Shown piece after piece: positions 17,194-45,556 of a stretch of 64,000 nt of DNA. A model generated the notes under the pieces. It searched no databases. It was not told where the DNA came from and was given only the letters and a program-made list of their open reading frames with translations. Position 1 is the stretch's first letter, and each line of letters begins with the position of its first letter. This stretch comes from an uncultured Parachlamydiaceae bacterium (GTDB lineage: Bacteria > Chlamydiota > Chlamydiia > Chlamydiales > Parachlamydiaceae). Made by a program: the position numbers and the translations under genes. The stretch lies in assembly GCA_963752155.1 (NCBI GenBank), contig CAVVXH010000002.1, forward strand, positions 1 to 64,000, written 5' to 3'.

Positions 17194-17281
17194 AGCAGCA
17201 AATCGTCAATTTTACTATTTGCTGCTAATTTTCCATATACAAAAATCGAGCAGCAAATCGACATTTTTGCTGTTTGCTGCT
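17194..17281. promoter_or_regulatory. Tandem pair of 33-bp palindromes upstream of ATPase 2
   Basis: agcagcaaat-N13-(a/g)tttgctgct at 17194-17226 and 17249-17281; period 55 bp. Confidence 0.75.
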
Positions 17282-17339
17282 TGATTTTTACATCCTATTG
17301 CCGTTATGCTTATGTATAGAATATAGGAGAAGAAAGATC

Positions 17340-18775
17340 ATGAAACCATCTTAGTTTATAGGACGCGAAGCCGAAATGAATAGGCTTAGAGGGCTCCTAG
17401 AAAAAAGAAGCGCGAGCCTTATAGTGGTAAGGGGGAGAAGGCGTATTGGAAAAAGCACGCTTCTTGCAGAATTTGGAAAAGAAATGAAAAGTTTCTTCTT
17501 TTCAGGAAACCCTACCAGTCCGCGAGACAACAGCTCAAACTCAGCGTGAAGATTTTGCACGTCAGCTTGAGAGAGCCGGTATTCCAGGGATTAAGCCCGA
17601 TGATTGGAGCAATCTCTTCTGGTACCTCTCAAAGGAAGTAAATAAAGGTCGAGCCTTTATTGTATTCGATGAAATTTCATGGATGGGAGGAAAAGATCCT
17701 CATTTTTTAGGACATTTGAAAACTGCTTGGGATATGTATTTTAGCAAAAATCCACAACTAATTATTGCTCTTTGCGGGTCCGTATCGTCATGGATTGAAA
17801 AAAACATCCTCAGCAGCACAGGATTTCTTGGAAGAATTACTTTTGATCTTATGCTTGAAGAGCTCCCATTAGAGGTCTGTAATGCTTTCTGGCATCCAAA
17901 AGAAAAGCGTATTACCTCTTACGAAAAGTTCAAGTTGTTATCTGTAACAGGAGGTGTGCCACTTTATTTAGAACAAATCAAACCAAATCTTCCTGCAGAG
18001 CAAAATATTCAAGATCTTTGTTTTACTAAAGGTGGCTTGCTGGTGCGGGAATTTGATGAGATTTTCTCAGATCTTTTTTCTCGCACTAAAACTAGACATA
18101 AAGAAATTGTTCTATGCTCTTGCCAATGGTCCAAAAGAGCTTAGTTCAAATTTGCAATGAATTAGGGAAAAGTTTGGGAGGGATATTCAGCAAGCATTTA
18201 GATGAATTGGTAAAGGCAGGTTTTGTAAAAAGAGACTTTACATGGGATCTAAAAAATGGGAAAGAAGGAAAATTGAGTCGTTATCGATTAAGTGATAATT
18301 ATTTGCGATTTTATTTGAAATATATAGCTCCTAATCGTTCTAACATAGAAAAAGAAAGCTTTTCCACCTTAATAACTCAACTTCCTGGTTGGGAAGGGAT
18401 CATGGGATTGCAGTTTGAAAATCTTGTCGTTCATAATAGAAAGACTTCTCTGGAAGATGCTAGGGATTGCTCCAGAGGAAATAGTCATGGAAGGTCCATT
18501 TTTTCAAAGTCATACGACTAAGCAAGCTGGATGTCAAATTGATTATATGATTCAAACTCGATTTCATAATTTATATTTGTGTGAAATCAAATTTTCTAAA
18601 GGTCTTGTCAGCATATAAGATTATTGAGGAAATGGAAAAAAAAAGAAAGAATTTAAAAATTCCTAAAAACTATTCTATCAGGCCTGTTCTTATTCATGTG
18701 AATGGAGTAGAGGAAAGTGTTTTAGATGAGAGATATTTTGATAAAGTCATCGATTTTGGCCAGCTTTTATCCTAA
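17340..18775 (+). pseudogene. Disrupted ATPase-wHTH-PD-(D/E)XK paralogue 2
   Basis: TAG at codon 5, then FIGRE...GRRRIGKS; frameshifts near 17515, 18115, 18445, 18615; fragments align with paralogues 1 and 3. Confidence 0.9.
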
Positions 18776-18950
18776 AAGATAATGCAGATCATCAAGAAGA
18801 GCGCTAGCCTCTCTTCTCAGAGATATATTATCCTGAGGTAAAACTTCAGTTTGCCTATGAAAGCTTTAATATGTTATACTCTTTTTCGTATAGGCAAGCG
18901 GATAGACAATTAAAGGAAAACGTGCTATTTAAAGGAAAAGAGGTCGAATA

Positions 18951-19235
18951 ATGCTAATGGATTTAACTCTAATAGTCACAATAGTGGGGTCGGCAGCAGC
19001 TTTGATAGCATGCATTTATGCATTCCGTCAAGGTTTGAAAACTGATCTTAGAAACTTGAAAATTGATCTTAAAGACGATATCAATGGACACATTGATCGC
19101 CTTGAAACAAAAATGGGACGATTTGATAGCAGAATGGATGCACTTGAAGATAGAATATTTTGGCTGGCAACAGGCAAGAAGCTTGAAGATGCTATTCTTG
19201 AAGAAAGAATGAAGCGGCCAAGAACTGATTCGTAA
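18951..19235 (+). CDS. Small protein with N-terminal TM helix and coiled coil
   Basis: GAGG RBS, hydrophobic N-terminus, heptad-like repeats. Confidence 0.75.
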   Translation: MLMDLTLIVTIVGSAAALIACIYAFRQGLKTDLRNLKIDLKDDINGHIDRLETKMGRFDSRMDALEDRIFWLATGKKLEDAILEERMKRPRTDS

Positions 19236-19288
19236 AACTCCAGCTTTACAAATTCCCAAATTTTAGAGCATAGAGAAAGAGCAGTAAG

Positions 19289-19400
19289 AGTGTTTTAGAT
19301 GAGAGATATTTTGAATCGATTTTGGTCAGCTTTTATAAATTGATGTTCAACTTTTTTGATTACTCCAGATTACTCCAAAAGATAATGCAGATCATCAAGA
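19289..19400. repeat. Duplicated junction of ATPase 2 3' end and SNF2 3' end
   Basis: 19289-19336 copies about 18716-18770 with a 7-bp deletion; 19377-19400 is identical to 18774-18797. Confidence 0.9.
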
Positions 19401-22090
19401 GTCAATTGAGAGATTGGTACATCCTCTTGCATGATATCAGCTGCCAACGACCTCTTTGCCGCTTTTAGAGTCATCATCTTCTCTTCGATCGTTTCGACAA
19501 TCACATAACGCTTGGCAATTACAGTATCCTTTCTTCCAATACGGTGTGCACGATCGATGGCCTGATTTTCCACTGCTTCATTCCACCACGGATCAAATAA
19601 GAAGACATAGTCCGCAGCAGTAAGGTTTAGGCCAATTCCTCCAGCTTTCAGGCTGATTAAAAAAATAAGTGTAGTTGAATTATCTTGAAATTCATTCACA
19701 ACCTTTTCTCGATCCTTAGTTTGCCCATCTAAATAAACAAAACTCCATTCACGTGCCCGAATTTCTTTGGCGATCAATTGAAGCATGCTTGTGAACTGAC
19801 TGTAGACTAATACTTTGCGTCCTTCTTCGACCGCCGTTTCTATGTCTTGCAACAGCGCCTCCAGCTTCGCTGAAGGGGCATCACAAAACTCTTCAGATTG
19901 ACCAATGGCTAGCAGCGGGTGGCAACAGATCTGCCGTAAGCGAAGAATGGCCTCTAATACCTCCATACGATGTTTCCCAACCCCATCTAACGCAACTTTC
20001 TTAAAAAGGTTACTTTTAAAACCTGCTAACAAGTCTTCATAGACTTTTCTTTGAGCTGGAGCCATTTCCACCCAGACGATTTGTTCAATTTTTTCTGGAA
20101 GGTCTTTTGCGACTTCATCTTTTTTTCTTCTCAGTGTAAATGGGCGCATCTTTCGACGAATCATTTGCAAATGACGGAAGTCGGCTCCGCCTGATTCTAT
20201 TTGAGCATTGAATTTTTTTTCTGAGCCGAAAAGATCGGGCATGATAAAGCGAAAATGGGCCCAGATCTCTGTTAGATGATTTTCAACAGGCGTGCCGGTC
20301 AAAGATAATCGAAATCCTCCTTTGAGCTTGTGGATGGCTTGCGCTGTAAGTGTGTTTGGGTTTTTAATCATTTGAGCTTCATCTAAAATGATGCACTGGT
20401 ATTCATGACTTTGAAAAAAAGTTAAATCAATTCTCAAAGTGGAATAAGAGGTTAAAATGATCGGCGGAGAAGATAGATCGTTGGGCCATGGAGTCCGTTG
20501 AGCTCCTTGATAGATAACCACAGGAGGTCCTGGCAAAAAGTGTTCAAGCTCACGTTTCCAGTTGAAAATCAATGAAGTTGGCAGAACAATAAGAATCGGT
20601 TTAACGATCTCTAATCTCGACAAAAAGGCCAGCACCTGTACAGTTTTACCAAGGCCCATATCGTCCGCTAAAAGTCCATGGAAGCCATATTCATAGAGAA
20701 ATGCAAGCCAGTTGACTCCTTCTTGCTGGTAGGGACGCAAATCTCCTTTAAACTTTGTCGAAGGAAGGGCTTCTTTAAGTCCTGTAAAAGAGAGCAATTT
20801 TTCTTTAAGATTGGCAAAAGTGTCATCATAGGAAAAGTTAGCCGTTGAATCAAAGATCTCTGAAAGGCTGCCTAGACGGCTTCGATGTAGGCGAATTCCG
20901 TTTTGAATGATTTCTCCTTCTTCTGCCAACCCATTAAGGCCATAGCTATCGAGCCCTTTGGGCAAAAGACCTACTCTGTTTCCACTTAATTGAATAAATC
21001 GATCTCGTCGATTGAAGGCCCCGATTACATCTTTGAGGTCAACATGATGTTCATCATAGGAGATTCTGCCATTCACGATGAAGCTATCACTTTCAGAAGT
21101 TATCTTTATGTCGCTATTTGTAAGGCGGCAAATACGATGACCCTGACAATCATCGATGGACCATCCTATTTCGAGTAAAAATGTCAGAGATTTAGCCACG
21201 CAATCGACAGGACAATAATAATGAGAGGAGCCTGCGATTTTGTGAACAAAGTCGGTTTCTAAAAGGTCCATTTCCCATTGCTTTTCGCTGGAAGGGTCTC
21301 TTCGGATGGTTATTTTGTTTTTTGGATCTTTAATCCAGGGAGAAGGATCGAGGAAAGAGATGATCTTTCGTTCGTTGCTGTTAGCGATTGGATAGCTCAT
21401 GAAAAGATTTGCAAACGCCCCAAGGCGATCTGTTAAAATGAGAAGAGGGAAGGGTTGGCTAATCGTTTCTAAAGATTTTTCAGCATGTTTCTCATAAACA
21501 AATTTTGGTTGATGAGGGCCTTCATCGGCATAATCTTTTTGAATTTGAGGTAATGAAATTTTGCTGGGATCGCGGTAGAGTTGTTTTAAATCTTTCCAGG
21601 CAATTTCGGTGATAATTTGTTTTAAGGATACGCCCTTGATGTAATAATGATAAGCTCCTGTACATAAAAAATCGCAATCTTTTAGATCGAATTCTTGATC
21701 ACCGCTTTTGAGTTTGCCAGAAATTTTGGGTGTATTTGCTTCGCTAGCTTCAATCAAGTAATGAAATTCAGTTTTATCAAAAAAATCGCAAACCAATGGT
21801 TTATTTTTAAAATAAAATGCATGGGTAGCGGCAAGCAATTCTAGCACGCGTGTCGTGGAAAGAAAGTGGATGTGGAATTTTGTGAGAGAAGTATTACCCC
21901 CGATCGATTGACTGCCTCGAATTTTACTCCGATAGCTACATTCTTGTTGGTGAAGCAGAAGTAAAAGCTCTTTGTGAAGAGGGGCCTGACGGATGACGTC
22001 ATATGTAATTGAAGGAGAAACTGCAATGACAAGAGTGCCGGTTAGATCGGATTCTTCTTGATCTATGCTGAAGCGGAAGTCTAAATACAT
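19370..22090 (-). CDS. SNF2-family helicase
   Basis: LADDMGLGKT, DEAQ, TGTPVEN, SLKAGGIGLNL, QAIDRAHRIG. Confidence 0.96.
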   Translation of the reverse strand: MYLDFRFSIDQEESDLTGTLVIAVSPSITYDVIRQAPLHKELLLLLHQQECSYRSKIRGSQSIGGNTSLTKFHIHFLSTTRVLELLAATHAFYFKNKPLVCDFFDKTEFHYLIEASEANTPKISGKLKSGDQEFDLKDCDFLCTGAYHYYIKGVSLKQIITEIAWKDLKQLYRDPSKISLPQIQKDYADEGPHQPKFVYEKHAEKSLETISQPFPLLILTDRLGAFANLFMSYPIANSNERKIISFLDPSPWIKDPKNKITIRRDPSSEKQWEMDLLETDFVHKIAGSSHYYCPVDCVAKSLTFLLEIGWSIDDCQGHRICRLTNSDIKITSESDSFIVNGRISYDEHHVDLKDVIGAFNRRDRFIQLSGNRVGLLPKGLDSYGLNGLAEEGEIIQNGIRLHRSRLGSLSEIFDSTANFSYDDTFANLKEKLLSFTGLKEALPSTKFKGDLRPYQQEGVNWLAFLYEYGFHGLLADDMGLGKTVQVLAFLSRLEIVKPILIVLPTSLIFNWKRELEHFLPGPPVVIYQGAQRTPWPNDLSSPPIILTSYSTLRIDLTFFQSHEYQCIILDEAQMIKNPNTLTAQAIHKLKGGFRLSLTGTPVENHLTEIWAHFRFIMPDLFGSEKKFNAQIESGGADFRHLQMIRRKMRPFTLRRKKDEVAKDLPEKIEQIVWVEMAPAQRKVYEDLLAGFKSNLFKKVALDGVGKHRMEVLEAILRLRQICCHPLLAIGQSEEFCDAPSAKLEALLQDIETAVEEGRKVLVYSQFTSMLQLIAKEIRAREWSFVYLDGQTKDREKVVNEFQDNSTTLIFLISLKAGGIGLNLTAADYVFLFDPWWNEAVENQAIDRAHRIGRKDTVIAKRYVIVETIEEKMMTLKAAKRSLAADIMQEDVPISQLTLDDLHYLLE

Positions 22091-22145
22091 TGTAAAAGAA
22101 CAGTAAAATTGATATTTTAAGACTTTATTATAAATTATATGAAGA

Positions 22146-23501
22146 ATGATGTCAATTAAAATGACTCTATATACTTATGCAGAAGCTATCTTAAAGCTTT
22201 CGTCTATCGGTGAAGAGCATCTTCTTCAACACTGGAATGCGTTAACTGAGAGCGAGCAAACACTTCTTTTAAATGAAATCCAGGCACTTGTTGTGGCTAA
22301 ATTTAAAAGACAACAACGAGCTCTGCAACAGCATTTGAAAGTACAAGAGCAACGGATAGCAAAATCATGGGAACCTTTTTGTGACTACTATTACGTAGGC
22401 TCACAGGAACGTCAAGAGTTAGGGACGCAACTTTTGGCGCAAGGTAAAGTGGGTTGCCTGCTTGTGGCCGGAGGACAAGGGACGCGCCTTTCTTATGATG
22501 CTCCCAAAGGAACCTATCCTGTAAGTGTGATCAAGAAAAAAAGCCTCTTCCAAATTTTTGCAGAAAAGACTCTCGCAGCCAGTAGACAAGCCAACTGTCG
22601 ATTGCCCTTGGCGATTATGACTTCGCCGCTTAATCATGCTGCAACATTAGGCTACTTTAAAGAAAATAATAACTTTGGTTTAGATGAAAAACAATTGTGT
22701 TTCTTTATGCAGGGAGAATTGCCCTTTCTGGACCCTCGGGGGCATTTGCTTATTCAGGATAGATGTTCGATCGCGAAGGGGCCTGATGGCAACGGTGGGT
22801 CTCTCAATCATTTTGTACAGAGCGGTATTTGGGATACTTGGCGGGATCAAGGCATTGAATACATTAACTATGTTCTTATTGACAATCCATTAGCGGATCC
22901 GTTTGATGCTGAACTCGTTGGATTTCATGCGACAGAGGGATGTGAAATAACTGTCAAATGTGTGGATAGAAATTCACCTGAAGAACGCGTTGGATTGCTT
23001 GTACAGGGCGATTCGAGGGTTAGCATCGTCGAATATTTCGAAATAAGTGAGAGTGAACGCAAAGCAGTTCTTCCGGATGGAAGCTTTAAGCATCGTTGTG
23101 CGAACATTAGTTTATTTTGTTTTTCGATGGATTTCACGAAGAAAAGTGTGAAAAACATTTCTTTGCCTTGGCATTTGACTTCCAAGCCTATTTGCCTGAA
23201 TGGGCCCGTGGCTTGGAAATTTGAAACATTTATTTTTGATTATCTTGCAGCTGCCAATGTGGTAAAAGCATTGCTTTATCCTCGTGAACAAACTTTTGCT
23301 CCTTTAAAGGGAACCGATAGTCTCGAAACTGTTCAAGAGAGACTGAACAAATATGATATTGCCACGTTGGAAAAGAGATGTGGTCATAGAATTCCTTTTT
23401 GCCCGCTTGAATTAGAGCAACAGTTTCATTATCCTACGCCAGAGCTTCTGGAAAAATGGAAAGGGTGTATGGGCCCCTTTGGTGGGTATATACAATATTA
23501 G
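22146..23501 (+). CDS. UDPGP/UAP-type UDP-GlcNAc (or UDP-glucose) pyrophosphorylase
   Basis: AGGQGTRL..PKG, PDGNGG, DNPL, KFETFIFD. Confidence 0.9.
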   Translation: MMSIKMTLYTYAEAILKLSSIGEEHLLQHWNALTESEQTLLLNEIQALVVAKFKRQQRALQQHLKVQEQRIAKSWEPFCDYYYVGSQERQELGTQLLAQGKVGCLLVAGGQGTRLSYDAPKGTYPVSVIKKKSLFQIFAEKTLAASRQANCRLPLAIMTSPLNHAATLGYFKENNNFGLDEKQLCFFMQGELPFLDPRGHLLIQDRCSIAKGPDGNGGSLNHFVQSGIWDTWRDQGIEYINYVLIDNPLADPFDAELVGFHATEGCEITVKCVDRNSPEERVGLLVQGDSRVSIVEYFEISESERKAVLPDGSFKHRCANISLFCFSMDFTKKSVKNISLPWHLTSKPICLNGPVAWKFETFIFDYLAAANVVKALLYPREQTFAPLKGTDSLETVQERLNKYDIATLEKRCGHRIPFCPLELEQQFHYPTPELLEKWKGCMGPFGGYIQY

Positions 23502-23537
23502 AACTGTGAATCACAGTTTTTTAGATGGAGAAAGAGT

Positions 23538-23727
23538 TATGCGTCAGCAAATCATCGACAAATGGAGTTTTGTTTTTATGTTTGTTTGTTGGATATTTTC
23601 GTGGTTTGTCTTCTATGGTTATAGTGGAGAGTTTAATTTTAGTTTATGGGCAGCAATTATCTCAGCCTTTATGGGTTGGATGGCGTATGTCTTTGTGAGG
23701 TTGTTAGTGTTGACCCTACGGAAATGA
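23538..23727 (+). CDS. Small two-TM membrane protein
   Basis: GGAG upstream of ATG 23538; two hydrophobic segments. Confidence 0.55.
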
Positions 23728-23728
23728 T

Positions 23729-25144
23729 TCAATAACGCAAGGTCATGTCAACGCCACAGAGTACCATGCCTTTCTTTTTTCCATTGTCAAAGGCGCGATG
23801 ATTCCAGTTTCTATAATATCCAATTTCTGGTCGCATTTGTACATTAGAATTGAAATTATAGCTTAAACCAACCGTATTGCTGGTATAGGTTCCAGCAAAA
23901 CCGGATCTTTCACCCGCGGCGTCTCTCCAAACCTCATTCCTAACAGTCACGAACTCTTTATCACTCAATCTGAACAGTGTGTAATTTAGAATTCCATAGG
24001 CCCATGAGACCCCTGAAATGTTTGCTCCAATACCACCACCACCTCCGAAAGGACGTACAGGTCCAGCGCTGGGTGTTCCACCTACGACGGCATCACGTTG
24101 CCACATGAAATAACTCTCGGTTTTGGTATGAATGTCTTCATTAATGACATGTTGCCATGTCCCCACAAGGTAGTTGAAGTTATCATGGCCTAGAGGTTGT
24201 CCGTACATCTGAAATCGACGAAATTTAGCGCTATTGATGGAATTTAGCACGAGATAAACGGAATCCTTGTTGTCATGTGAGACCCATCGTATTCCAAACA
24301 TCCCAGTAGGAACTGCTCCTTTATACCATGGAGCCATATCTGTGCCGGCATGAAGACAGGCTTGTACAGTCCAGTACTGATTAAGCATAAATGTGAACAT
24401 GATACCCGTTTGAGTATAGGTGTCAAAAGTGAATAGTAGAGAATGGGATCCCATGTAGTTATCTGGAGCAAACTGTGTTTCAATATCGGGACATGCGATC
24501 CATCGGCCAATACGCACAATCATTCCTTGTGCCACTTTTGGAGTATAAATATCGATATATTGTTCTGTGAAATCGTATCCGTATAGAGAATTATGCTTGA
24601 GTAATTGGAAGCTGGACCATCCTCCTGCAGTCATATACCGATAATCTGTGCCATATAAAAAGGAGGAACGGAAACCGATGTCCATATGGTCGGTTTGTAC
24701 GGAGTCTAGAACTCTTTCCACTCGAAAGAGAAATTGATTGAATTCTACTCTATTGGGGACGAGCCAATAGGACGAGGGCATATTTGAATCTCGGCAGTTG
24801 CTTACATTGATTGAGCCATTGAACCAGCCATAGATATTAATACCACTTTCTTTTAAAGCTTCACCCCAAGATGTTTTGGAAAGGGCTTTCATAAGGGGAT
24901 ATTCATCATCGCTTGAGGGAACGCCGATCAAAGGATAGCCTTGAAATTCACCAGTAGGAAAGGGAGGTGATGGAAATGGAGGAGGTAAAGCACGTCTTAT
25001 TTTTTCGTCTTCCTTACATTCCTCTTTATCATTGGCTTTTTCTTCTGTAGAAGAATCGTTGGATGTGTTAGCTTTAAATTCTGTTTCTTGTGTATATCCA
25101 AAGCTTGATAGGATGATGCAAGCGATGATGGCGTAATTTTTCAT
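23729..25144 (-). CDS. Outer-membrane beta-barrel (putative porin)
   Basis: Signal peptide, amphipathic beta-strand pattern, terminal aromatic residue. Confidence 0.75.
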   Translation of the reverse strand: MKNYAIIACIILSSFGYTQETEFKANTSNDSSTEEKANDKEECKEDEKIRRALPPPFPSPPFPTGEFQGYPLIGVPSSDDEYPLMKALSKTSWGEALKESGINIYGWFNGSINVSNCRDSNMPSSYWLVPNRVEFNQFLFRVERVLDSVQTDHMDIGFRSSFLYGTDYRYMTAGGWSSFQLLKHNSLYGYDFTEQYIDIYTPKVAQGMIVRIGRWIACPDIETQFAPDNYMGSHSLLFTFDTYTQTGIMFTFMLNQYWTVQACLHAGTDMAPWYKGAVPTGMFGIRWVSHDNKDSVYLVLNSINSAKFRRFQMYGQPLGHDNFNYLVGTWQHVINEDIHTKTESYFMWQRDAVVGGTPSAGPVRPFGGGGGIGANISGVSWAYGILNYTLFRLSDKEFVTVRNEVWRDAAGERSGFAGTYTSNTVGLSYNFNSNVQMRPEIGYYRNWNHRAFDNGKKKGMVLCGVDMTLRY

Positions 25145-25361
25145 TTTAGATGACCCCTGGTTGGTTTTGAGATCTATAGATCCTTTCACATAAAAGGATC
25201 AATAGTGGAAAATAGGTTTTTTTGCAAGAAAAAAAATAAAGACTGTTGTGTTTTTGCTGTTACAACAAAATTTAAATTGACAAACAATTAGTTTAATTTA
25301 TAGTTAGAAATTAGGGAAGCTATTTTTTTACAATAAAAATTTACAAAATTTTGGAGGAAAT

Positions 25362-26942: not shown

Positions 26943-26952
26943 GAGGCTGTTA

Positions 26953-26981
26953 GGATTGCAGCAAGTCTTTTGCTGCAATCC
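26953..26981. terminator. Probable bidirectional terminator
   Basis: 12-bp stem ggattgcagcaa/ttgctgcaatcc between convergent genes. Confidence 0.65.
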
Positions 26982-26989
26982 GTCTAGAG

Positions 26990-27436: not shown

Positions 27437-27675
27437 TTTTAAACCTATAAATAAATTAGTTATTATTTTTTGAAATTTTTCATTTATGAAAAAATCACAT
27501 TTTTGTAGATGAACAATCTCATCTATTATTGATTATATAGAATTAAGAATGATTGTTGCAACATCTAAATGAGTAAATTGTCAGATTTTTTATTCTTTTA
27601 CTGTTGTGAAATTATTTATATAGTTATATACTAAAAGTAAAGGGGTGTTACCAGTTATCAATAAGGCGGTGTTTT

Positions 27676-27945: not shown

Positions 27946-27955
27946 TAGGATAGCG

Positions 27956-28637: not shown

Positions 28638-28708
28638 TTTTGGTTGCAAATCAATCTTCTTATTGGTACAACTTGTATTAAGGGACTGTGTATTCGAACA
28701 ACGAGTAA

Positions 28709-32703: not shown

Positions 32704-32712
32704 GGAATCATT

Positions 32713-33726: not shown

Positions 33727-33727
33727 T

Positions 33728-34868: not shown

Positions 34869-34873
34869 GCGCA

Positions 34874-34898
34874 GCAATTCCCGTTAAACTTTCGTGCC
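34874..34898. repeat. Left end of element family E
   Basis: 24/25 identical to 38129-38153. Confidence 0.75.
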
Positions 34899-34922
34899 TG
34901 CGTGGCAGAGCCACAATTAGAA

Positions 34923-35669: not shown

Positions 35670-35765
35670 TGTAATCCTCCGTGGAAAAATAAACTTAATT
35701 TTACGAGATGTTTAATTAAGACGCAAGGTTTTGGTGATGCCTGCAGCAATTGCTGCTAATTGTAC

Positions 35766-37196
35766 TCAGTACTTGCAGTTAAATAGCATCTCTGAGAAGT
35801 CTATAATCCGTGCAAAATATCCTCTATCAACAACATCTTCCGAAACACCATTGACATGAATGAGCACAGGACGACAGGAAAAGCCTCGAGGAAGCTGTAA
35901 ACGATGAAGCTTTTCTTCCATCTCTTCAATGACTTCTATTCCCACCACTCCTTGTCGGAATTTGACTTCACACGCATATAAATCACGAAATCGCGTTTGA
36001 ATCAAATAATCGATTTGACATCCTCGTCTACGAATAGTCGCCTTTTGAAAATAAGTATTAGCGATCACCACATCTTCTGGTGAAATACCCAGGATCTTAC
36101 ATACGAGAAATCCATTGTTGATGATCAAATTTTCAAACTGCATTCCCATTATAGACAACCACCCATGAGGTAAACGTTGTAGATGAGTACTTTCGATTTG
36201 TTCTTTATGTGGAAGAATATACTTCATATAAAATCTTAAATAATTATCTTTAATCCGATAAAGGCTAGATTCTAATCGTTTTCCAGTTGCTATTGACCAA
36301 TTATAATCACGTGACAAAAAACCGGATTCCATTAAATCCCCTAGAGCTGTGCTCAAATCGCCTCCCCGGGATCTATCCAATTTTTCTGCGAGTTCTATGG
36401 TTGAAAGAGGAGAATTGATTAAATTTTCGACAATTTGTTTATAGAAAAGGCCTTGCTTTTGGAATAAGTCATGAAAAATTTGATCAAATTCACGGAAAAG
36501 CAATCCTTCCTGGTCAAAGCATAAACGTAGCAGGTTTGCTTCTGCAGATAGATCTGGACGTAATTCTTCAAGATAACGTGGGATTCCTCCTGTCACTGAT
36601 AAAAATTTAAACTTTTCGTAAGCGGAGATTTTTCCAGGACTCCCTTCCCAAAACAGATTACATTCAGGCAAGGATAGCTCTTCTAACAGAAGGCGAAGAG
36701 AAACTCGGCCAAAAAATCCTGTGCTGCTAAGGATGTTTTTGCTGATCCAAGCTGAGTTTGATCCCGAAAGAATCATTACAAACTGAGGATTTTGTTTAAA
36801 GTAACGATCCCATGCAGTCTTTAATTTGGGGAGGAATGTGGGATCATGTGAACCCATCCAGGTAATTTCGTCGAGAACCACAAGTATACGTTCTTTCTTA
36901 CATTCTTGAGCTAAATCGTAGAAAAGATTTCCCCAATCATCGCATCGATAAATTGGTAGTTTATATTCTTGAAGTTGCCGAAGAAATTCTTCTCTTTGTG
37001 TTTGTCCAGTGACGCCTGGTTCAGGGGGAATCCCCGATAAGATGTATGCTTTACTGAAGGCTGAGGCATATTCTTCAGCCAAACGACTTTTGCCTATCCT
37101 TCTGCGGCCACGAATCACGACAAGGCTAGAGCTCTTTTTTCGAAGGAGCCCCTTGAGTGATTCAATTTCCTTTTCTCTTCCAATGAATTTTGTCAT
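35766..37196 (-). CDS. ATPase-wHTH-PD-(D/E)XK paralogue 3
   Basis: MTKFIGRE, GRRRIGKS, VVLDE, QIDY...ACEVK; start chosen by homology. Confidence 0.9.
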   Translation of the reverse strand: MTKFIGREKEIESLKGLLRKKSSSLVVIRGRRRIGKSRLAEEYASAFSKAYILSGIPPEPGVTGQTQREEFLRQLQEYKLPIYRCDDWGNLFYDLAQECKKERILVVLDEITWMGSHDPTFLPKLKTAWDRYFKQNPQFVMILSGSNSAWISKNILSSTGFFGRVSLRLLLEELSLPECNLFWEGSPGKISAYEKFKFLSVTGGIPRYLEELRPDLSAEANLLRLCFDQEGLLFREFDQIFHDLFQKQGLFYKQIVENLINSPLSTIELAEKLDRSRGGDLSTALGDLMESGFLSRDYNWSIATGKRLESSLYRIKDNYLRFYMKYILPHKEQIESTHLQRLPHGWLSIMGMQFENLIINNGFLVCKILGISPEDVVIANTYFQKATIRRRGCQIDYLIQTRFRDLYACEVKFRQGVVGIEVIEEMEEKLHRLQLPRGFSCRPVLIHVNGVSEDVVDRGYFARIIDFSEMLFNCKY

Positions 37197-37212
37197 TTTT
37201 ATCTCAAATATT

Positions 37213-37282
37213 TTCCCCAAAAATGACAAAATGGTATTTTTGGGGGTTTTTTTAATATTAGATGAATTCCCCAAAAATGACA
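37213..37282. promoter_or_regulatory. 31-bp palindrome plus half-copy upstream of ATPase 3
   Basis: ccccaaaaat-N11-atttttgggg at 37215-37245; ttccccaaaaatgaca repeated at period 54 bp. Confidence 0.7.
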
Positions 37283-37390
37283 TCTTAAAAATGATCTGAC
37301 TTTTTTCAATGTTACAACAACACTACAATAGATCTTAATTTTCGGTTCTGTCCCCGAAGGGCGAATCACAAGCCTACTCTCATCACTTAA

Positions 37391-37813
37391 TTAATGATCA
37401 AAAGGTGTAATACAAGGTAAGCATGAATTCTTATTTTTTCTATATATTTTAAAACTTCCATCGAGTGTTAAAATCTTTGCATGATCATGAAGTTCAGCCA
37501 TTCTGACTAGACAAGCATCTGCGAGAGACATGGGAACATTTTTATATTTATGAACGAATTGTTTTATTAATTTCGCCTCTACATTAAGATTAAATTCTGT
37601 CACTATTATATTTCGGTCTATCATTTCTAAAATAATTTCTCGCCCTTGATCAATATGCCGCGTCAAAAAGCAAGCTTCAGAAATTACAGCCTGACAGGTT
37701 AGTATGGGAGGAGAAATTTCTTGAAATCTAGTTTTAGCCCAACCATGGTACTTGTCTTTAAGATTGAGATAAGCGACTAAGGGACCGGTATCTAAAATGA
37801 TCAAATTTGTCAT
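37391..37813 (-). CDS. PIN-domain toxin (VapC-like)
   Basis: ILDTGPL, VISEA, SLADACLV, LTLD. Confidence 0.9.
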   Translation of the reverse strand: MTNLIILDTGPLVAYLNLKDKYHGWAKTRFQEISPPILTCQAVISEACFLTRHIDQGREIILEMIDRNIIVTEFNLNVEAKLIKQFVHKYKNVPMSLADACLVRMAELHDHAKILTLDGSFKIYRKNKNSCLPCITPFDH

Positions 37814-38049
37814 TGTCCATAGCCTTCTAAATAGGTAGGATTTTCTGATAGATCTTCAGGCCCATTAATTGCTCCGCACAAATCCTTCGACAATGTATAT
37901 AAACTGTTATGAGAAGTTGATCTTTTTTGACTCAGGTAAAATTCTAAAGCTTGACGAATAAGATCTGATTTTCGCATTTTTCTTCTTTTAGACTCGCCAT
38001 CCAAGTTATTGGCCAGCTTCTCCGGACATTTAAAAGAGAGTGTTTTCAT
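37810..38049 (-). CDS. Ribbon-helix-helix antitoxin
   Basis: TLSFK...KSDLIRQAL; 4-bp overlap with the PIN gene. Confidence 0.85.
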   Translation of the reverse strand: MKTLSFKCPEKLANNLDGESKRRKMRKSDLIRQALEFYLSQKRSTSHNSLYTLSKDLCGAINGPEDLSENPTYLEGYGQ

Positions 38050-38128
38050 AAGTTTCTCCAGGTAATACCCCTATAAACACATTGTATTACTTTTTACAGT
38101 ATTAGTCGAGAATCATTTTTTCGAATCT

Positions 38129-38238
38129 GCAATTCCCGCTAAACTTTCGTGCCGGTGTGCACGCGTGCGTGCCCGAGCCCGAAAAATTTCGTAGATTTTA
38201 CTAATTTTCGGGCATGGGCACGAATTAGCTGGAATTGC
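38129..38238. repeat. Palindromic element E with internal gtgccc-like repeats
   Basis: Ends gcaattcc.gctaa/ttagc.ggaattgc; inner cgtgccc..gcccgaaaa/ttttcgggc..gggcacg. Confidence 0.8.
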
Positions 38239-38319
38239 TTAAAAAAGGTCTTTTTTCCTGCCAAAAATGTCACAACTTGATATGATCCTAATTATGAGGA
38301 AATCTATTAACGAGGAAAT

Positions 38320-39399
38320 ATGGATATGAAATATTTAGTTTTATTTTTACTTTTAGTTACACCTTCAATCATCCTTTTTAGCTCTGTATCCAATGAAAAG
38401 GCTGATCCCAAAATTATTCCTGTAACAACTCCGCCGCCAGAAGAAAATAAAATTTACCCAATTGCTGTGATTGGTTCAGGGGCTGCAGGCACGATGGCTG
38501 TTAAAAGAATTGTTTTAAATAACGATGAAGTGCTTCTCTTTACTGGCGCTAAATCAGAAAGAAGGCGATCAAGAGGAAATTGGGTTAGAAAAGTCGATAA
38601 TATTCCAGGCTTTGAGAAATATTCTAGAACTGTCTTAGAATTACGCAATGAGTCCCTAAAGGAGCTGCTCAAAAGTGATTTAAGCCACAATCTTTTTGTC
38701 ATTGAAGACTCAATTACTGAAATCACAAAAGAAAACGAAATATTTAAACTCAAAGATCAAACGGGTCGCACGTTCTTTGTTAAGTATGTCATTTTAGCTA
38801 CCGGAATCATGGACGAACAACCACATATTCAAGAGAGTATTCGGCCAATTCTTGATTTTGCGAATGGTCAAACAGTCGCTTATTGCCTAATATGCGATGG
38901 GCATCGCAGCTTTAGAAAAAAGACTGTGATCATTGGACATTCCGAAGAGACTGCTGATGCAGCTATTCTTCTATCTGATAAATATTCATTAACAGATGTT
39001 ACGATACTTACAAATGGAAAACCTCCAGAATTTAATCGTCAAGAAATGTTAAATAGGAAAATTCAAATCAATGAAAATCCAATTATTGAAATACTTGGAG
39101 ATAGGAGTGATCAACAACTTACCGGCTTTAAATTACAAAATGGCGAAATTGTGGAAGCAGAAATGGGATTTGTTTCTTTGGGAATTAGGCCTAACAATCA
39201 ACTTGCTTTGCAGTTGGGAGCTCAGGTTGATGCTAGAGGACTCGTAATCACCGACAAAGACGGTGAAACTTCCATTCCAAATTTATTTGTAGCCGGCGAC
39301 CTGCGTGCACAAAGTATGAAACAAATTTACACTGCCTGGCAACATGCAGTCGAGTGTGCCCAGATCATTAATTGGCGCCTACGATCAGCAGTGGAATGA
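38320..39399 (+). CDS. Thioredoxin-reductase-like FAD/NAD(P) oxidoreductase
   Basis: IGSGAAG, ILATG, CLICDG, TSIPNLFVAGD; N-terminal signal or anchor. Confidence 0.85.
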   Translation: MDMKYLVLFLLLVTPSIILFSSVSNEKADPKIIPVTTPPPEENKIYPIAVIGSGAAGTMAVKRIVLNNDEVLLFTGAKSERRRSRGNWVRKVDNIPGFEKYSRTVLELRNESLKELLKSDLSHNLFVIEDSITEITKENEIFKLKDQTGRTFFVKYVILATGIMDEQPHIQESIRPILDFANGQTVAYCLICDGHRSFRKKTVIIGHSEETADAAILLSDKYSLTDVTILTNGKPPEFNRQEMLNRKIQINENPIIEILGDRSDQQLTGFKLQNGEIVEAEMGFVSLGIRPNNQLALQLGAQVDARGLVITDKDGETSIPNLFVAGDLRAQSMKQIYTAWQHAVECAQIINWRLRSAVE

Positions 39400-39406
39400 T
39401 GCGCGT

Positions 39407-40909
39407 ATGCAAAAAATGCAAACCATCACACCTACCTACTCCTACTGGAAGGCACATTGGAATCAATTTAAAAAGCACTATCCAGGCTATATAGGGCTAT
39501 GGGTCGTCCTCGTATTTTGCTTAGTTGGAATCTATGCTCCCTTTTTAGCTTCCAGTAAGCCTTTGTTTGTCATGTACGAGGGCGTGCCTTACTTTCCTCT
39601 TTTTCGATATCTCTTTTATCCCGAATTTTTCACTAAACCACTTGACATTTTCTTTAATTTGCTCATGTTCACATTTCCTTTCATGCTACTCGGCATCTGC
39701 TACAGTCGCATAAAATATCGTGGAAAGGTATTTTTAGGGTTATGTGGATTACAAATTGTACTATTTATTTACCTTCTTTCCAATCCCCCTTCGGATCCTG
39801 CAAACAATCCAGAGCTCAGCCTCGAACGCAACTCAGTTTTAAAGAATCACCCTGAGAAATATTTCGATTGGAATTTCAATTTAAATCATATGAACGCCTA
39901 TGCAAAACTTAACCTACTCACAAGATACCGGCTGCAAAAAGCCCAATTTGAACAGTTACGACATGACCTTCACGAAAACCCTCAAACACTTTATTACACA
40001 GAGCAATTACGCCAGAAAGCGATCATCGAGCAAGAAAAGAAAAAACTGAAGGACTCACCTGAGTCCCAAAATTCAACTTCTTCTCAACAAGTTGAAACCA
40101 AAATAAACTACATTCAAGATCGAATGAAATGGATCGAAAATGAAAGTCAAAAACTAAATTTCATGCTAATGCCTCTCTTGAGCCATTTTCACTGGGAAGA
40201 TGATGCCGGAGGCGATCAAAGTTTAAATCAAAAACTTCCTTGGTGGGAACTTACGCGTACTAATCGAAAAGACCTCTTAGCGGCATTAATTTTTGGAGTA
40301 CGAATTTCTTTAGTTGTCGGATTTCTAGCCGTTGCCATAGCTTTAGCCATTGCTATCCCCATTGGGGCGACAGCAGGATTCTATGGCAGTACAATCGATA
40401 TGATTATTTCTCGAATTTTAGAAATTTGGGAAGCGATGCCAACATTTTTTATGCTATTAATGATGGTTGCGATCCTTCAAAGTAAATCCATATTTATTGT
40501 CATCGGAATCATAGGACTTTTTAGTTGGACAGGATTCAGTCGTTATTTACGAGCAGAATTTTTTAAACAACGCAATCTTCCCTATGTAGAAGCCTGCTTT
40601 GCTTTAGGTTACAAAAATAGCTATATCATGTTCGTCCATATCTTACCAAACGCCATGCCTCCTTTACTCACATTACTCCCATTTGCCATTATGGGGGCAA
40701 TCAGCAGTGAAGCTGGCCTTTCTTTTTTAGGTCTAGGAGAGGAAGGATCATGTTCTTGGGGAGTTTTGATGGATGAAGGGCGTGCAGCTTTTCCTGGAGA
40801 AAGTCATTTACTATGGCCTCCTGCAATTTTACTCACCACCTTGCTAGTCGCTATTGCACTCGTTGGCGATGCCCTTAGAGATACTTTTGATCCTAAAATG
40901 CAAAGATGA
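39407..40909 (+). CDS. oppC: Oligopeptide ABC permease OppC/DppC
   Basis: GVRISL, YVEA..ALG, HILPNA, EAGLSFLGLG. Confidence 0.88.
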   Translation: MQKMQTITPTYSYWKAHWNQFKKHYPGYIGLWVVLVFCLVGIYAPFLASSKPLFVMYEGVPYFPLFRYLFYPEFFTKPLDIFFNLLMFTFPFMLLGICYSRIKYRGKVFLGLCGLQIVLFIYLLSNPPSDPANNPELSLERNSVLKNHPEKYFDWNFNLNHMNAYAKLNLLTRYRLQKAQFEQLRHDLHENPQTLYYTEQLRQKAIIEQEKKKLKDSPESQNSTSSQQVETKINYIQDRMKWIENESQKLNFMLMPLLSHFHWEDDAGGDQSLNQKLPWWELTRTNRKDLLAALIFGVRISLVVGFLAVAIALAIAIPIGATAGFYGSTIDMIISRILEIWEAMPTFFMLLMMVAILQSKSIFIVIGIIGLFSWTGFSRYLRAEFFKQRNLPYVEACFALGYKNSYIMFVHILPNAMPPLLTLLPFAIMGAISSEAGLSFLGLGEEGSCSWGVLMDEGRAAFPGESHLLWPPAILLTTLLVAIALVGDALRDTFDPKMQR

Positions 40910-41048
40910 TTGATTTTTAGAAAAAAAACCTTGCTTTTATGATAGTAATTTCTATATATATAATCATAAGGGGCTGTGAAACAAAAATTTGCACGATCCC
41001 AAACCTTAAATTGCATTTTTTGTTTTTTCTGAAAGTCTTGGTAATAAT

Positions 41049-42101
41049 ATGTCGCAACCCGATAGGAAATTTGAACTTAGAAAAGATCAATTCCTTCTGA
41101 ATGAACAACTCGTTCAGTGGGTACAAGCATTTGAGCCAAAATTCAGAAAAATTATTTATGGACACATAGCTCTACATGTTTCCTTCCTCTCGATAGGCAT
41201 TCTGGAATTCTTTTCTTTTACTTTTTTTTTCACTTTTTTAAAAGAATATTCTCTCATAGCGTTTGCCCTAGCACTCCTTTTTTTAACTCTATTTTCATAT
41301 TACATAGTGTATCTTTATAGTCAAACACGAAAACCGGAGCAACTTAAAGAGTTAAAAAATACGTTCTCCAATGGGGCTAGAGAAATCATTAATTACGATC
41401 ATGATATGACCGATTCCCATTTAACACTAGCTGATACTTTTTGTAAATTAGCTTACAGCCTAGATGGAATGGAATACACTCTTTTCAACCCTCCTAGAAT
41501 CTTAAAAAGGCTCTCTTCTTACTTTGAGAAATTGAGTTGTTGGGCTTATTGGCATGATGTTTATACAATAAAAGAAATGGTTCTCGTTGCCATGGTCGAA
41601 GAGCACATCAAACTCGTAAAATGCGATGCCGCAAATCTTGAAGCCCATACTGCACTTGCTAATGCCTATATTCTACTCTCAGCCTTATATATGGTACCTG
41701 AGGAAGAAGAGGAAAGAAGCCGTATGATTTCATCATGCTCTACAGAGGAGCTTAAGGAAAAATTTCAGGCTATTGCTAAGCGAGCTATTGAAGAATTCAA
41801 AATTTTAAAGGAATATTCTCCACATGACCCCTGGATTCATGAGCAGCTTGCCCATAGTTATTGTGACTTGCAAATGCCCCTAGAAGCTATCAGTGAATAT
41901 GAACAGATTTTAAAATTAAATTCAACAGACTCTGAAACATTATATAAACTAGGTATTTTGTATTTCCAACTTGGACGCAATGCCCATGGCTTAAAAGTCT
42001 ACGAACAACTTAAGCGCTTAAATTACAAAAAGGCCAACACTCTTATCGCTCATTATGGGGCTTATTCTGATTCAATATTTAATTTTAAAAAGGAAATCTA
42101 A
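41049..42101 (+). CDS. Membrane-anchored TPR protein
   Basis: Two TM helices and C-terminal TPR-like repeats. Confidence 0.8.
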   Translation: MSQPDRKFELRKDQFLLNEQLVQWVQAFEPKFRKIIYGHIALHVSFLSIGILEFFSFTFFFTFLKEYSLIAFALALLFLTLFSYYIVYLYSQTRKPEQLKELKNTFSNGAREIINYDHDMTDSHLTLADTFCKLAYSLDGMEYTLFNPPRILKRLSSYFEKLSCWAYWHDVYTIKEMVLVAMVEEHIKLVKCDAANLEAHTALANAYILLSALYMVPEEEEERSRMISSCSTEELKEKFQAIAKRAIEEFKILKEYSPHDPWIHEQLAHSYCDLQMPLEAISEYEQILKLNSTDSETLYKLGILYFQLGRNAHGLKVYEQLKRLNYKKANTLIAHYGAYSDSIFNFKKEI

Positions 42102-42931
42102 TGAATGTCCCTTCGGAACAAGAACTTGAAGAATTTTTAGCTACCGCCCTAGAAGCTGCAGCAGCAGCTGGAATTATTTTACGTCAATTCTGGGGAAAAA
42201 TATTAAATATACAAGAAAAAAGTCATCCAGGTGATCTCGTCACTATAGCAGACCACACGGCCGAAGAAAGAATTATCGAATTTTTGCATGATCGATATCC
42301 TCATCATGCCATACTTGCAGAAGAATCAGGAGCACGATATATTAGCGGTAATCCCGGTGAAAGTAAGTTCACATGGGCGATTGACCCGTTGGATGGAACG
42401 ACGAATTACACACACCAATTTCCCGTGGTGTGCGTTTCTATAGCTTTACTTCTTGACGAGATACCAATTGTAGGAGTTGTCTTTAATCCAATTACCGGAG
42501 AGCTCTTTCATGCGACGAAAGGGGGCGGCGCTTATTTGGATGCACTTCCTATCAAAGTTTCAAGCGTGTCCGAAATTTCCCGCAGTTTACTAGCAACAGG
42601 TTTTGCCTATGATAGAACTGTAAACGTGAATAACAACTTAGCTGAATTCTGTAAGCTTACACTTCTTTCTCAAGGTGTTCGTCGAATGGGATCTGCTGCT
42701 TTAGATCTCGCCTACGTAGCCGCAGGTAGATTGGATGGTTACTGGGAGACAAATTTACAGCCTTGGGATGTTGCAGCAGGCTCTCTGCTTGTGACCGAAG
42801 CAGGGGGCCTTGTGACTGATTATGACACATCTTCCTTCAAAATTTATTCAGGGCGCATTCTTGCCACCAATAATCTTCTTCATAAGGCTCTAAGCACTGT
42901 TTTAGAACAAGAAAAAAAATCGCCTAAATGA
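42101..42931 (+). CDS. suhB: Inositol monophosphatase
   Basis: DLVT.AD, AEE, WAIDPLDGTTN, WDVAAG. Confidence 0.93.
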   Translation: MNVPSEQELEEFLATALEAAAAAGIILRQFWGKILNIQEKSHPGDLVTIADHTAEERIIEFLHDRYPHHAILAEESGARYISGNPGESKFTWAIDPLDGTTNYTHQFPVVCVSIALLLDEIPIVGVVFNPITGELFHATKGGGAYLDALPIKVSSVSEISRSLLATGFAYDRTVNVNNNLAEFCKLTLLSQGVRRMGSAALDLAYVAAGRLDGYWETNLQPWDVAAGSLLVTEAGGLVTDYDTSSFKIYSGRILATNNLLHKALSTVLEQEKKSPK

Positions 42932-43683
42932 TAACGATTAAAATTCGCATATTTATTTCTTGGCTATTTATTTTTTTGATTTTTGCAAATTGTTGTGCTG
43001 ATTTCGAAGAGGTCGACAAATGGCTTTTACCTAAAGCTCATCCTGCTTCTACTATTTTGGATAAGTTAATAAAAAATTCTAAGATGTTTGACAGTTTAAC
43101 ATCTTTAGAGAAAAAGGGGTTCACTTCTGCAATTGAACCGGAAAACGTGAAGCCGTGGTCTATTTTTGTCATTTCTCATCCAAAACTTAAAGATTATTTG
43201 ATCAAAAAATATTCGAACGATGTTTCGAGTAAAAAGCAATTGGAGAACTATTTGGCAAGGCTCAGAGGAGCTAAAGTCATCGCAGATTATATAAAAGACT
43301 ATCAACTTAAACATATCGTTGTGCCCAAAAAATGGCTTTATAAGCTTAAGAATGGGAAAGAAAAAAATGCAAATTTTTTATTGCTTGTTGAAAAGCTGAC
43401 TATTTGCCCAGGTGGCTATTGGGGAGGGGAAACTCTAGAGAGATACCTCAACATGCCATTTTCAATGGTTGCTGAGCTATGTCAAATTCTTCACGCTATA
43501 AAAGGATGCGATGCGTGGCCGCAAAACCAACCTGTTACCTATACTGATAAAATTGCCTTTATCGACACCGAGCATGTGGGGTGTTCTCCAGGGGATTTTT
43601 TACAAAACATTGTACCTTATATAAATCCTCATTTCAAAGCGCATGCTCTACAGCTATGGGAGGAACTAGGTGAATGTCCCTAA
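42928..43683 (+). CDS. Hypothetical exported protein, possibly kinase-like fold
   Basis: Signal peptide; LIKKY, DAWPQN, IAFIDTE. Confidence 0.6.
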   Translation: MITIKIRIFISWLFIFLIFANCCADFEEVDKWLLPKAHPASTILDKLIKNSKMFDSLTSLEKKGFTSAIEPENVKPWSIFVISHPKLKDYLIKKYSNDVSSKKQLENYLARLRGAKVIADYIKDYQLKHIVVPKKWLYKLKNGKEKNANFLLLVEKLTICPGGYWGGETLERYLNMPFSMVAELCQILHAIKGCDAWPQNQPVTYTDKIAFIDTEHVGCSPGDFLQNIVPYINPHFKAHALQLWEELGECP

Positions 43684-43694
43684 AGGCCAATTAA

Positions 43695-44519
43695 TTATTT
43701 GTCTCGCTGAACAAATTGAATAAGACGACATTTATGGCTAAAGGGAGGATTTCGTGTGCTGTCAGTAAACACGTATATTTCTTCAGCATTTAGTAATTCT
43801 TCGTCAGAAGAATCAGAAGTGATAGCTTTTCGTGGCAGATTCTTTTTTTTCATGATCTCACGACTAAATCGCATTAAAATTCTACCTTGATATCGCCCCA
43901 AGTACTCAAACCTTGTAAAATCTGTAGCGATTAAAAAATCGTACATTCTACGGACATGAGATTCTTGACTCACGTGCCCCTCATAATACATCGTCTCTCC
44001 AGCAAATCGAGAGAGGTTGGCTATGACAGCAGTTTTATTAAAAAACTCAGAAGTATCCAAAACGGCAAGTAAAAGGACCGTGTCCACTTTTGGTAAAGTA
44101 GCTAAAAGAGCTTTATTTTCTATGTCGCCTGAAAAGAAATAGGCTCTTGAAATATCCAGTCGAGATGCATTTTCTTGAGCTCTTTTGATGCAATGAGGAT
44201 TGTACTCTACTCCATAAACTTTGAAGGCACCAAGTGTTCTGCAAGCAAGTAATACACCTCCATCATTGCATCCAAAGTCCATGATGAGCTTTCCTTCAAT
44301 ATCCGATGATCGAAATCGCAAAGCACGTTCGAGGCTTTCTTCTCGATTGCTTTTTTGGTAAGACCATTCAGGAGCACCGTAGCTTGGGTTTTCGACTGTT
44401 TGATTTTTCACACAGTCCTCTTGCGCATTATAACGATAGAGATTTTTTGACGTTGCTTTTATTTCGCTGGAAAAGAAGAGGGAGCTTAGGAGAGCCAAAT
44501 AGAAAATTAAACATCGCAT
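43695..44519 (-). CDS. Class I SAM-dependent methyltransferase with apparent signal peptide
   Basis: MDFGCNDG motif I, GVEY motif II. Confidence 0.85.
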   Translation of the reverse strand: MRCLIFYLALLSSLFFSSEIKATSKNLYRYNAQEDCVKNQTVENPSYGAPEWSYQKSNREESLERALRFRSSDIEGKLIMDFGCNDGGVLLACRTLGAFKVYGVEYNPHCIKRAQENASRLDISRAYFFSGDIENKALLATLPKVDTVLLLAVLDTSEFFNKTAVIANLSRFAGETMYYEGHVSQESHVRRMYDFLIATDFTRFEYLGRYQGRILMRFSREIMKKKNLPRKAITSDSSDEELLNAEEIYVFTDSTRNPPFSHKCRLIQFVQRDK

Positions 44520-44711
44520 AATATATCTCCGAAAAAGGGCATTCAGTGAACACAATCTAACACAAGTCTATTTTATTTTCATTTTGTTGAATAACAAAAC
44601 CTGAGCCTATCTGGATCGGGAGTCAAATAACGTTTGCCAAATCTTTTTTTTGAAACCTAGAACCTAGAGGCTCCAATCTTGAAAATAGCCTTGCCATTTC
44701 TTCCTCCCCCA

Positions 44712-44789
44712 TTTCCGGATTCGAAATATGTGACTTCTAATTAAGTATGCACCCCTGATTATGGAAGTCACATATTTTGGCTCCGGAAA
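44712..44789. repeat. Imperfect palindrome
   Basis: tttccgga....aaatatgtgacttc / gaagtcacatattt....tccggaaa. Confidence 0.75.
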
Positions 44790-44814
44790 AGATTGAGTCA
44801 AAAGCATGATTCCG

Positions 44815-44924
44815 ATGCATACGCATCAGGATAAGGATAAAGATAAAGATAAGGATAAGGATAAAGATAAGGATAAGGAAAAAGGAAATTAAAATTTTAT
44901 TACCTTATCCTGATGCGTATGCAT
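44815..44924. repeat. Palindromic element F with 8x gataa(g/a)
   Basis: Perfect 22-bp IR atgcatacgcatcaggataagg; a third end copy at about 45305-45337. Confidence 0.9.
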
Positions 44925-44975
44925 TTCGAGTATATAGTTTGACACGTTCTGTTGCTACTGTGGATCAACGGTAAA

Positions 44976-45244
44976 AAACGATAAAAACGATAAAAACGAT
45001 AAGAACGATAAGAACGATAAGAATGATAAAAACGATAAGAACGATAAAAACTATAAAAACGATGGAAAAAGTCTGGTTGGGAAAACCGTAATCGTGGAAT
45101 TAAAATGTTGTGAAAGTTTGGTTCAATTATTCAACTATTTAAAAGTTTCTTCTGGAAACTCAACTTTAAATCGGTTTGTTACTAAATTTCCGACATAGGT
45201 AATTGGAATGACTTTCGTTTTTATCGTTTTTATCGTTGTATCGT
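44976..45244. repeat. Degenerate second member of family D (9-bp arrays in inverted orientation)
   Basis: About 10x aacgataa(a/g) at 44976-45063; inverse units ending atcgttgtatcgt near 45215-45244. Confidence 0.85.
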
Positions 45245-45472
45245 TTGCATCGTTGATTACGTCTACATAAAAAAACAGATCCCGACAACGTCGTGAATGG
45301 ATGTTAATTTCCTTATCCTGATGCGAATGAATTTCGATTTTGAGTGTAGCCACGTAGCCTCTAAATAGTCTAAACCACTTTTCAAAGATAGTTTTTATAG
45401 TTTTTTATAATTTAGTGGTTCAATTTGCGCAATTTCTTAGCTATAACGATTTCACACAGTTTACGTTAATCG

Positions 45473-45556
45473 GGCAAAATCTATCTAAATTTTATAGATT
45501 TTGCCGAGTTTAAACACTAATCAGGCAAAATCAATCCAAATTCCATAGATTTTGCT
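45473..45556. promoter_or_regulatory. Tandem pair of 33-bp palindromes upstream of ATPase 4
   Basis: ggcaaaatctat-N9-atagattttgcc at 45473-45505, variant at 45524-45556; period 51 bp. Confidence 0.75.

Follow-up and report, generated by a model that had tools for sequence, protein, structure and literature searches.

Upstream palindromes as likely self-operators of PDC-S27 ATPase genes in a Parachlamydiaceae genome

Four dispersed ATPase paralogues (here ATPases 1 to 4) lie in the window that we analysed, a stretch of 64,000 nucleotides from an uncultured Parachlamydiaceae bacterium (contig CAVVXH010000002.1), and palindromes lie upstream of their genes. This raises the question of which protein reads these palindromes and to what end. 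A sequence-only reading of the same DNA had proposed that each paralogue has its own palindrome with a shared geometry, and that these sites co-diversify with the winged helix of the encoded protein, giving orthogonal protein-site pairs.

The three intact window proteins (ATPases 1, 3 and 4) match the PADLOC model PDLC04984 (PDC-S27) over nearly their full length, with E values of 3e-79, 7e-75 and 2e-180, and their N-terminal part matches Pfam ATPase_2 (PF01637) with scores above the cut-off. Fold searches returned 2qen, 2fna, NLRs and CED-4, with a P-loop, a helical domain and a winged helix in STAND arrangement; these searches hardly covered the C-terminal PD-(D/E)XK part, and Pfam DUF234 gave no match to the window proteins. 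The Walker A/B residues G35, K36, D109 and E110 are retained in 307-314 of 314 proteins, as are the nuclease motif residues E355, D396, E410 and K412 in 306-314 of the 314, where the predicted structure has an alpha/beta domain. Judged by these matches, the window ATPases are PDC-S27/ATPase_2 proteins that combine a STAND-like ATPase and a winged helix with a predicted PD-(D/E)XK nuclease. In ATPase 3 (476 aa) the ATPase spans residues 1 to about 250, the winged helix about 250-316 and the nuclease about 345-470; in the structure model (pLDDT 94.6), R277 lies in the turn preceding helix 279-290, and residues 307 and 309 lie in the wing. The host genome (3.13 Mb, 22 contigs) holds about 21 intact PDC-S27 copies and several broken ones, and close homologues are found mostly in Chlamydiae. 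The expansion is larger still in the related genome G005, with 30 family matches at E 1e-30, and many of the relatives searched have none. Bacteroides thetaiotaomicron, the source of a control hit, also has a member of the family.

The family is also known as DUF234 or COG1672 in PMC3424549, whose passages on it are confined to domain content and prevalence, as are those of 10.1101/2025.11.08.687337. PMC12988326 describes the fusion of an ATPase with a PD-(D/E)XK domain, widespread in bacteria and archaea, with 3503 archaeal and 4562 bacterial detections of PDC-S27, and its defence label, as presented in 10.1101/2024.01.29.577857, rests on gene context. In the literature searched, we found nothing on upstream operators, DNA specificity or autoregulation of PDC-S27. 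The genes and sites in the window are as follows.

900..930, + strand: likely true operator of ATPase 1, a degenerate palindrome that aligns with the operators of orthologues
919-924 (-35) and 942-947 (-10), + strand: likely ATPase 1 promoter, a weak consensus match
956..986, no strand assigned: dispersed 31-bp palindromic repeat in the ATPase 1 leader, with seven genome copies, before unrelated genes
1002..2429, + strand: ATPase 1, intact PDC-S27 gene, 475 aa, clade I, K at the equivalent of position 277
17194..17226, + strand: ATPase 2 operator 1, 33 bp, retained in orthologue L048 and relatives L131 and L137
17249..17281, + strand: ATPase 2 operator 2, 33 bp, period 55 with operator 1
17281-17286 (-35, abutting operator 2) and 17305-17310 (-10), + strand: likely ATPase 2 promoter
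17340..18775, + strand: ATPase 2, a PDC-S27 pseudogene (or assembly errors)
35766..37196, - strand: ATPase 3, intact PDC-S27 gene, 476 aa, with R277, D280, R307 and E309
37215..37245, - strand: ATPase 3 operator 2, 31 bp, downstream of the likely -10 and over the likely transcript start
37255..37283, - strand: ATPase 3 operator 1 region, with right half at 37269-37278, likely -35 at 37283-37278 and -10 at 37260-37255
45473..45505, + strand: ATPase 4 operator 1, 33 bp, kept in L283 (77% identical) and degenerate in L106 (75%)
45524..45556, + strand: ATPase 4 operator 2, 33 bp, period 51
45645..47096, + strand: ATPase 4, intact PDC-S27 gene, 483 aa from the chosen start, clade II

Several other features lie near these loci. 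The 3' ends of ATPase 2 and of a convergent helicase-like gene are duplicated (18716-18810 and 19289-19400) around a small ORF at 18951-19235, an insertion-with-duplication scar. Upstream of the ATPase 3 operator, a 97-bp piece (37316-37412), whose translation we take to resemble a phosphoglucomutase C-terminus, recurs at 97% identity at C10:615831 and C10:620284 of the host genome (G000), near a Fic-domain gene. Also upstream of ATPase 3, at 37391-38049 (- strand), a ribbon-helix-helix gene (Pfam RHH_1) overlaps with a gene of 140 aa that has no Pfam hit and is, we presume from its motifs, PIN-like; the two are likely a toxin-antitoxin pair. Dispersed palindromic repeat families and short tandem arrays occupy intergenic DNA near the ATPase genes (300-760, 38160-38225 and 44790-45340), and a run of genes for a MoxR-type ATPase, DUF58-like, vWA and TPR proteins (48945-55897, + strand) resembles a Bat operon.

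The palindromes described in the sequence-only reading for ATPases 2, 3 and 4 were found as described: two 33-bp copies with a period of 55 bp for ATPase 2, a 31-bp site plus a half copy with a period of 54 bp for ATPase 3, and two 33-bp copies with a period of 51 bp for ATPase 4. The left arm of ATPase 3 operator 1 has been lost here and is present in 12/12 aligned orthologues, all of which carry the same two-palindrome array although their neighbouring genes differ. ATPase 2 has five single-base insertions (near 17517, 18117, 18143, 18446 and 18614) relative to an orthologue at 86.8% nucleotide identity. The single 31-bp site assigned to ATPase 1, on the other hand, turned out to be the dispersed repeat at 956-986, which is missing from all four aligned ATPase 1 orthologues (70-72% identical); these have two operators, of which the second, promoter-side one aligns with 900-930. 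The 956-986 element is thus an insertion in the ATPase 1 leader, not its operator.

Upstream palindromes are enriched at the paralogues of the host genome and across relatives. Inverted-repeat scores of at least 9 occur at 21/26 paralogue loci and in 94/777 upstream windows from intergenic DNA, a control set from which neither the paralogue loci nor the dispersed repeats of the genome had been removed (Mann-Whitney p 3e-13). Over the 200 bp upstream of 252 loci, scores of at least 8 were reached by 20/23 loci of the host genome, 127/153 of other genomes and 60/76 from metagenomes, with a shuffle mean of 5.3. Plasmid homologues of Emticicia, Butyrivibrio and Segatella have clear upstream palindromes; those of Paracaedimonas, Malaciobacter and Desulfosarcina have no obvious one, many distant homologues lack a clear one, and paralogue C10:401474 has none of its own that is clear, with a dispersed repeat nearby. 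The cognate palindrome lies upstream in 64/65 loci and within the gene in 0/65. Each operator measures 30-39 bp, with a period of 51-55 bp and a motif that differs by clade. When 100 distances between adjacent palindrome centres were measured in clade I arrays, 67 came to 53-55 bp and 23 more to 25-28 bp, the latter being outward-facing repeats between operators. Within clades the geometry is held in common; palindromes are wider in the ATPase 4 clade.

Such palindromes could be terminators, RNA hairpins or dispersed REP-type repeats unlinked to the protein, and the genome is rich in repeats of this kind; indeed, the 31-bp repeat before ATPase 1 is one, and on the minus strand a single terminator-like match overlaps ATPase 2 operator 2. 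Against this, best sites are single-locus in 24/26 cases (median 14-mer copy number 1-2, maximum 4), so that a REP-like reading fits only 956-986 and the repeat near C10:401474 (2/26 best sites). The palindromes have no Rfam match, and their arm mismatches (64 G-T, 68 A-C) are without a G-T bias, which argues that the symmetry is read as DNA and not as an RNA hairpin. Together with the covariation with the protein described below, this largely refutes the terminator, hairpin and REP readings, to which we give next to no weight for the operators themselves.

Single-locus palindromes or arrays also lie upstream of five other stand-alone genes of the host genome, L277, L278, L279, L280 and L281 (C10:188707, C11:73076, C11:99960, C10:616137 and C10:215430), which encode three PDC-S01 ATPases, one DUF4172-Fic protein and one AlbA_2/HATPase_c_4 protein. 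Self-operators may be general to such stand-alone gene families.

The arrays coincide with likely promoters, which are weak consensus matches inferred from conservation. A sigma-70-like promoter overlaps the arrays in clade-specific registers, the best -35 falling at five offsets from the palindrome centre in 51/114 loci. In the ATPase 3 clade the -35 lies within the operator 1 loop, with a conserved -10 17 bases further, and in the ATPase 2 clade the -35 comes downstream of both operators and is placed alike relative to the operator in the relatives of ATPase 2; a strict promoter scan found no promoter at ATPase 2 itself.

If these sites are read by the protein that they precede, changes in the site should be accompanied by changes in its winged helix. 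We numbered base positions from the palindrome centre and used a clade I site finder that presupposed C at -14 and an A tract; 114 of 144 loci of the first set were scorable, the 30/144 without a good site having been dropped before counting, as were 21/99 in a later clade I set (78 scorable) and 50/123 in clade II (73 scorable). Column 277, immediately ahead of the predicted recognition helix, had been spotted by eye before the scans. By mutual information with bases -13/-12 it ranks first of about 470 columns at 75, 65 and 60% clustering, and by co-change on the tree it ranks first of 467 (z 5.1, next 2.9), so that the proposed co-diversification of sites and winged helix is supported by both approaches. 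In the first set, K at 277 goes with AC or AT (44/47), R with CC (14/16), Q with CG (6/10) and S with GC (6/9), and the pairing of R277 with CC occurs in three separate clades. Column 277 again came first in the later 78 loci (z 4.4; K with AC/AT 39/41, R with CC 7/8, Q with CG 6/9), only 12 of which are less than 65% identical to the first set; among these 12, K held in 7/7, and the single Q and single S missed.

Across 192 homologues, and whichever of four column sets the tree was built from, the columns ranking highest for the core bases all fall in the winged helix (277 for -13/-12, 280 for -16, 307 or 278 for -15 and 309 for -11), and for the inner base -7 the top column lies outside it on all four trees. 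In clade II the homologous column, 284, ranks first of 467 for 2/7 features (z 4.7 and 3.1), shifted by one base from the register seen in clade I, with S accompanied by GC in 24/34; the covariation there is weaker than in clade I. Pairs of loci less than 60% identical agree in their -13/-12 letters in 52% of cases if residue 277 is shared and in 8% if it is not (31% versus 4% with lysine excluded). Independent-pairs tests, which were underpowered, gave none at p 0.05: of six pairs for K and R, 2.4-3.9 agreed with the expected direction and 0-0.4 ran against it, and for S the count was 1/5. In leave-one-cluster-out prediction of the dinucleotide, residue 277 reached 50% against a baseline of 38%, with T266 at 49.9% and E211 at 48.9%. 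Taken together, the alignments suggest a residue-base code in PDC-S27 that is partly readable, and the palindromes are a real feature found family-wide, likely self-operators.

Since the GC-rich core letters covary with residues of the protein's own predicted winged helix, the protein likely binds its own sites. Palindromes in promoters are the usual mark of ordinary regulators, and separate host transcription factors might be imagined to bind these too; given that the rest of the genome hardly contains these sites, that they accompany the gene and that they covary with its winged helix, we regard such factors as highly improbable readers. Our preferred explanation is instead that PDC-S27 proteins bind their own upstream palindromes as dimers, likely repressing their own promoter, and we consider this probable on the comparative evidence. 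One winged helix would bind each half-site, the core being read by the start of the recognition helix and by the wing, and two dimers, five turns apart and on the same face of the DNA, would cooperate. Because the likely -35 lies in or abuts an operator and the second operator often lies over the likely start, operator occupancy would block RNA polymerase, although the geometry in the ATPase 2 clade might allow activation as well. Such autorepression could keep a potentially harmful predicted nuclease scarce, and, as in the switches of STAND and Cdc6/Orc1 proteins, the nucleotide state of the ATPase may set both DNA binding and the release of the nuclease.

The intact nuclease and ATPase motifs, the STAND-like fold and the PADLOC listing of PDC-S27 as a defence candidate would suit an array that acts as a tether, on which scarce protein is parked inactive until chromosome degradation or an invader's DNA mimic frees it as a nuclease for abortive defence. 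The consistent overlap with promoters favours transcription control over such a tether, and in PMC12881386, where one PDC-S27 member was challenged with T4, T5 and T7 in E. coli B, the four protecting systems did not include it; we give the tether a slim chance. A restriction endonuclease acting on the same site was also considered and set aside: the expected avoidance of half-sites by the host genome was not seen, 17 half-site 8-mers occurring at 0.82-1.25 of expectation, a weak test given that the genes may be recent arrivals.

How separate the paralogues are can be judged from their cores. Among the 12 clade I cores of the host genome, 0/66 pairs are identical and three differ by one base, and in genome G005 one of 105 pairs is identical. 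That much agrees with the orthogonal pairs that had been proposed, but same-genome pairs are no more different than between-genome ones, with cores within one mismatch making up 4.8% of 210 and 6.7% of 5916 pairs, respectively. Likewise, most paralogues do have a palindrome of their own, found at a single locus, but the ATPase 2 half-site equals that of the paralogue at G000:C11:163895, from another clade, over 8 bases. These comparisons suggest that cross-talk is likely limited, not absent, and orthogonality of the paralogue sites is partly supported, as a partial property. Under self-repression, a new copy in which residue and site had both changed would no longer be repressed by the resident copies, and this escape could let more than 20 paralogues coexist.

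Orthologues lie in unrelated neighbourhoods, and a direct repeat starting at the stop codon brackets 23/365 loci against 14/1404 other genes, the latter drawn from the host genome only (Fisher p 3e-8). Among the bracketed loci inspected, eight (L005, L190, L200, L204, L207, L210, L333 and L491, of which L005 is a paralogue in the host genome) have as their repeat a copy of the operator array of the gene itself, in direct orientation and running from at or just after the stop codon to a variable end; for L411, L222 and L186 the repeated piece is a flank that stops at the operator edge. The stop-codon operator copies fit a circle closed from stop to operator. The main role of the array could then be to form the end of a mobile cassette of one gene, with the protein binding the array to cut, circularise or insert the unit of operator and gene, and with autoregulation secondary; however, 342/365 loci lack such a repeat, like scars surround the small ORF at 18951-19235 and the segment near the C10 Fic gene, so the process may be generic, and promoter overlap needs no mobility. 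We hold this reading to be unlikely. A transposon with terminal inverted repeats was rejected, the cognate sites not lying at both ends and a full downstream palindrome occurring in only 1/65 loci. Slightly better placed, though still doubtful, is a combined proposal in which operator array and gene would form a minimal self-mobilising element: operator reading by the winged helix would both repress the gene and mark the circle end, and one-residue changes in the reading head would found lineages that ignore each other's repression. We keep its odds low because similar scars surround unrelated genes.

Self-regulation via upstream palindromes is a familiar principle, and the C proteins of restriction-modification systems, which are small separate regulators, offer the nearest comparison. 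Like PDC-S27, they have two palindromic operators upstream of their own gene, for which phylogenetic footprinting revealed motifs that differ by clade, and they time a nuclease, as set out in PMC2632904; for C.PvuII-like motifs, that paper places both operators within 35 bp, as against PDC-S27 operators of 30-39 bp each with a period of 51-55 bp. Unlike C proteins, PDC-S27 unites reader, ATPase and nuclease in one chain of 470-490 aa, and no methylase was seen in the PDC-S27 flanks examined. Its control would therefore work like C-protein control at most, the layout that defines C-protein systems being absent. The archaeal ATPases PAB2304 (2qen) and SSO1545 (2fna) are, unlike PDC-S27, chains of about 350 residues without a nuclease part. 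Cdc6/Orc1 proteins act on origin boxes and Orc1 has no nuclease, whereas the PDC-S27 sites, scattered over more than 20 copies, lie on the likely promoter of the gene itself, with nothing that points to origins. A sister ATPase-nuclease family, distinct from PDC-S27, is PDC-S01 (AAA_14 plus DUF4143, COG1373); three of its members, picked for their high scores, have single-locus upstream palindromes, and several others in the host genome score low. Binding and bending of DNA is described for Rx1 in the pertinent part of PMC4599002, and in the literature searched we did not find sequence-specific operator reading by a STAND winged helix described.

PDC-S27 genes are among the commonest uncharacterised genes of prokaryotes. 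With a predicted DNA site for each protein and named residue-base pairs, binding, oligomer state, nucleotide control and toxicity become directly testable, and self-operators would imply that the native promoter be kept in phage tests. The paralogues may offer a natural set of near-orthogonal regulator-operator pairs. If the proposal is true, the STAND-type winged helix would act here as a sequence-specific reading head, linking Cdc6/Orc1 and NLR-type switches.
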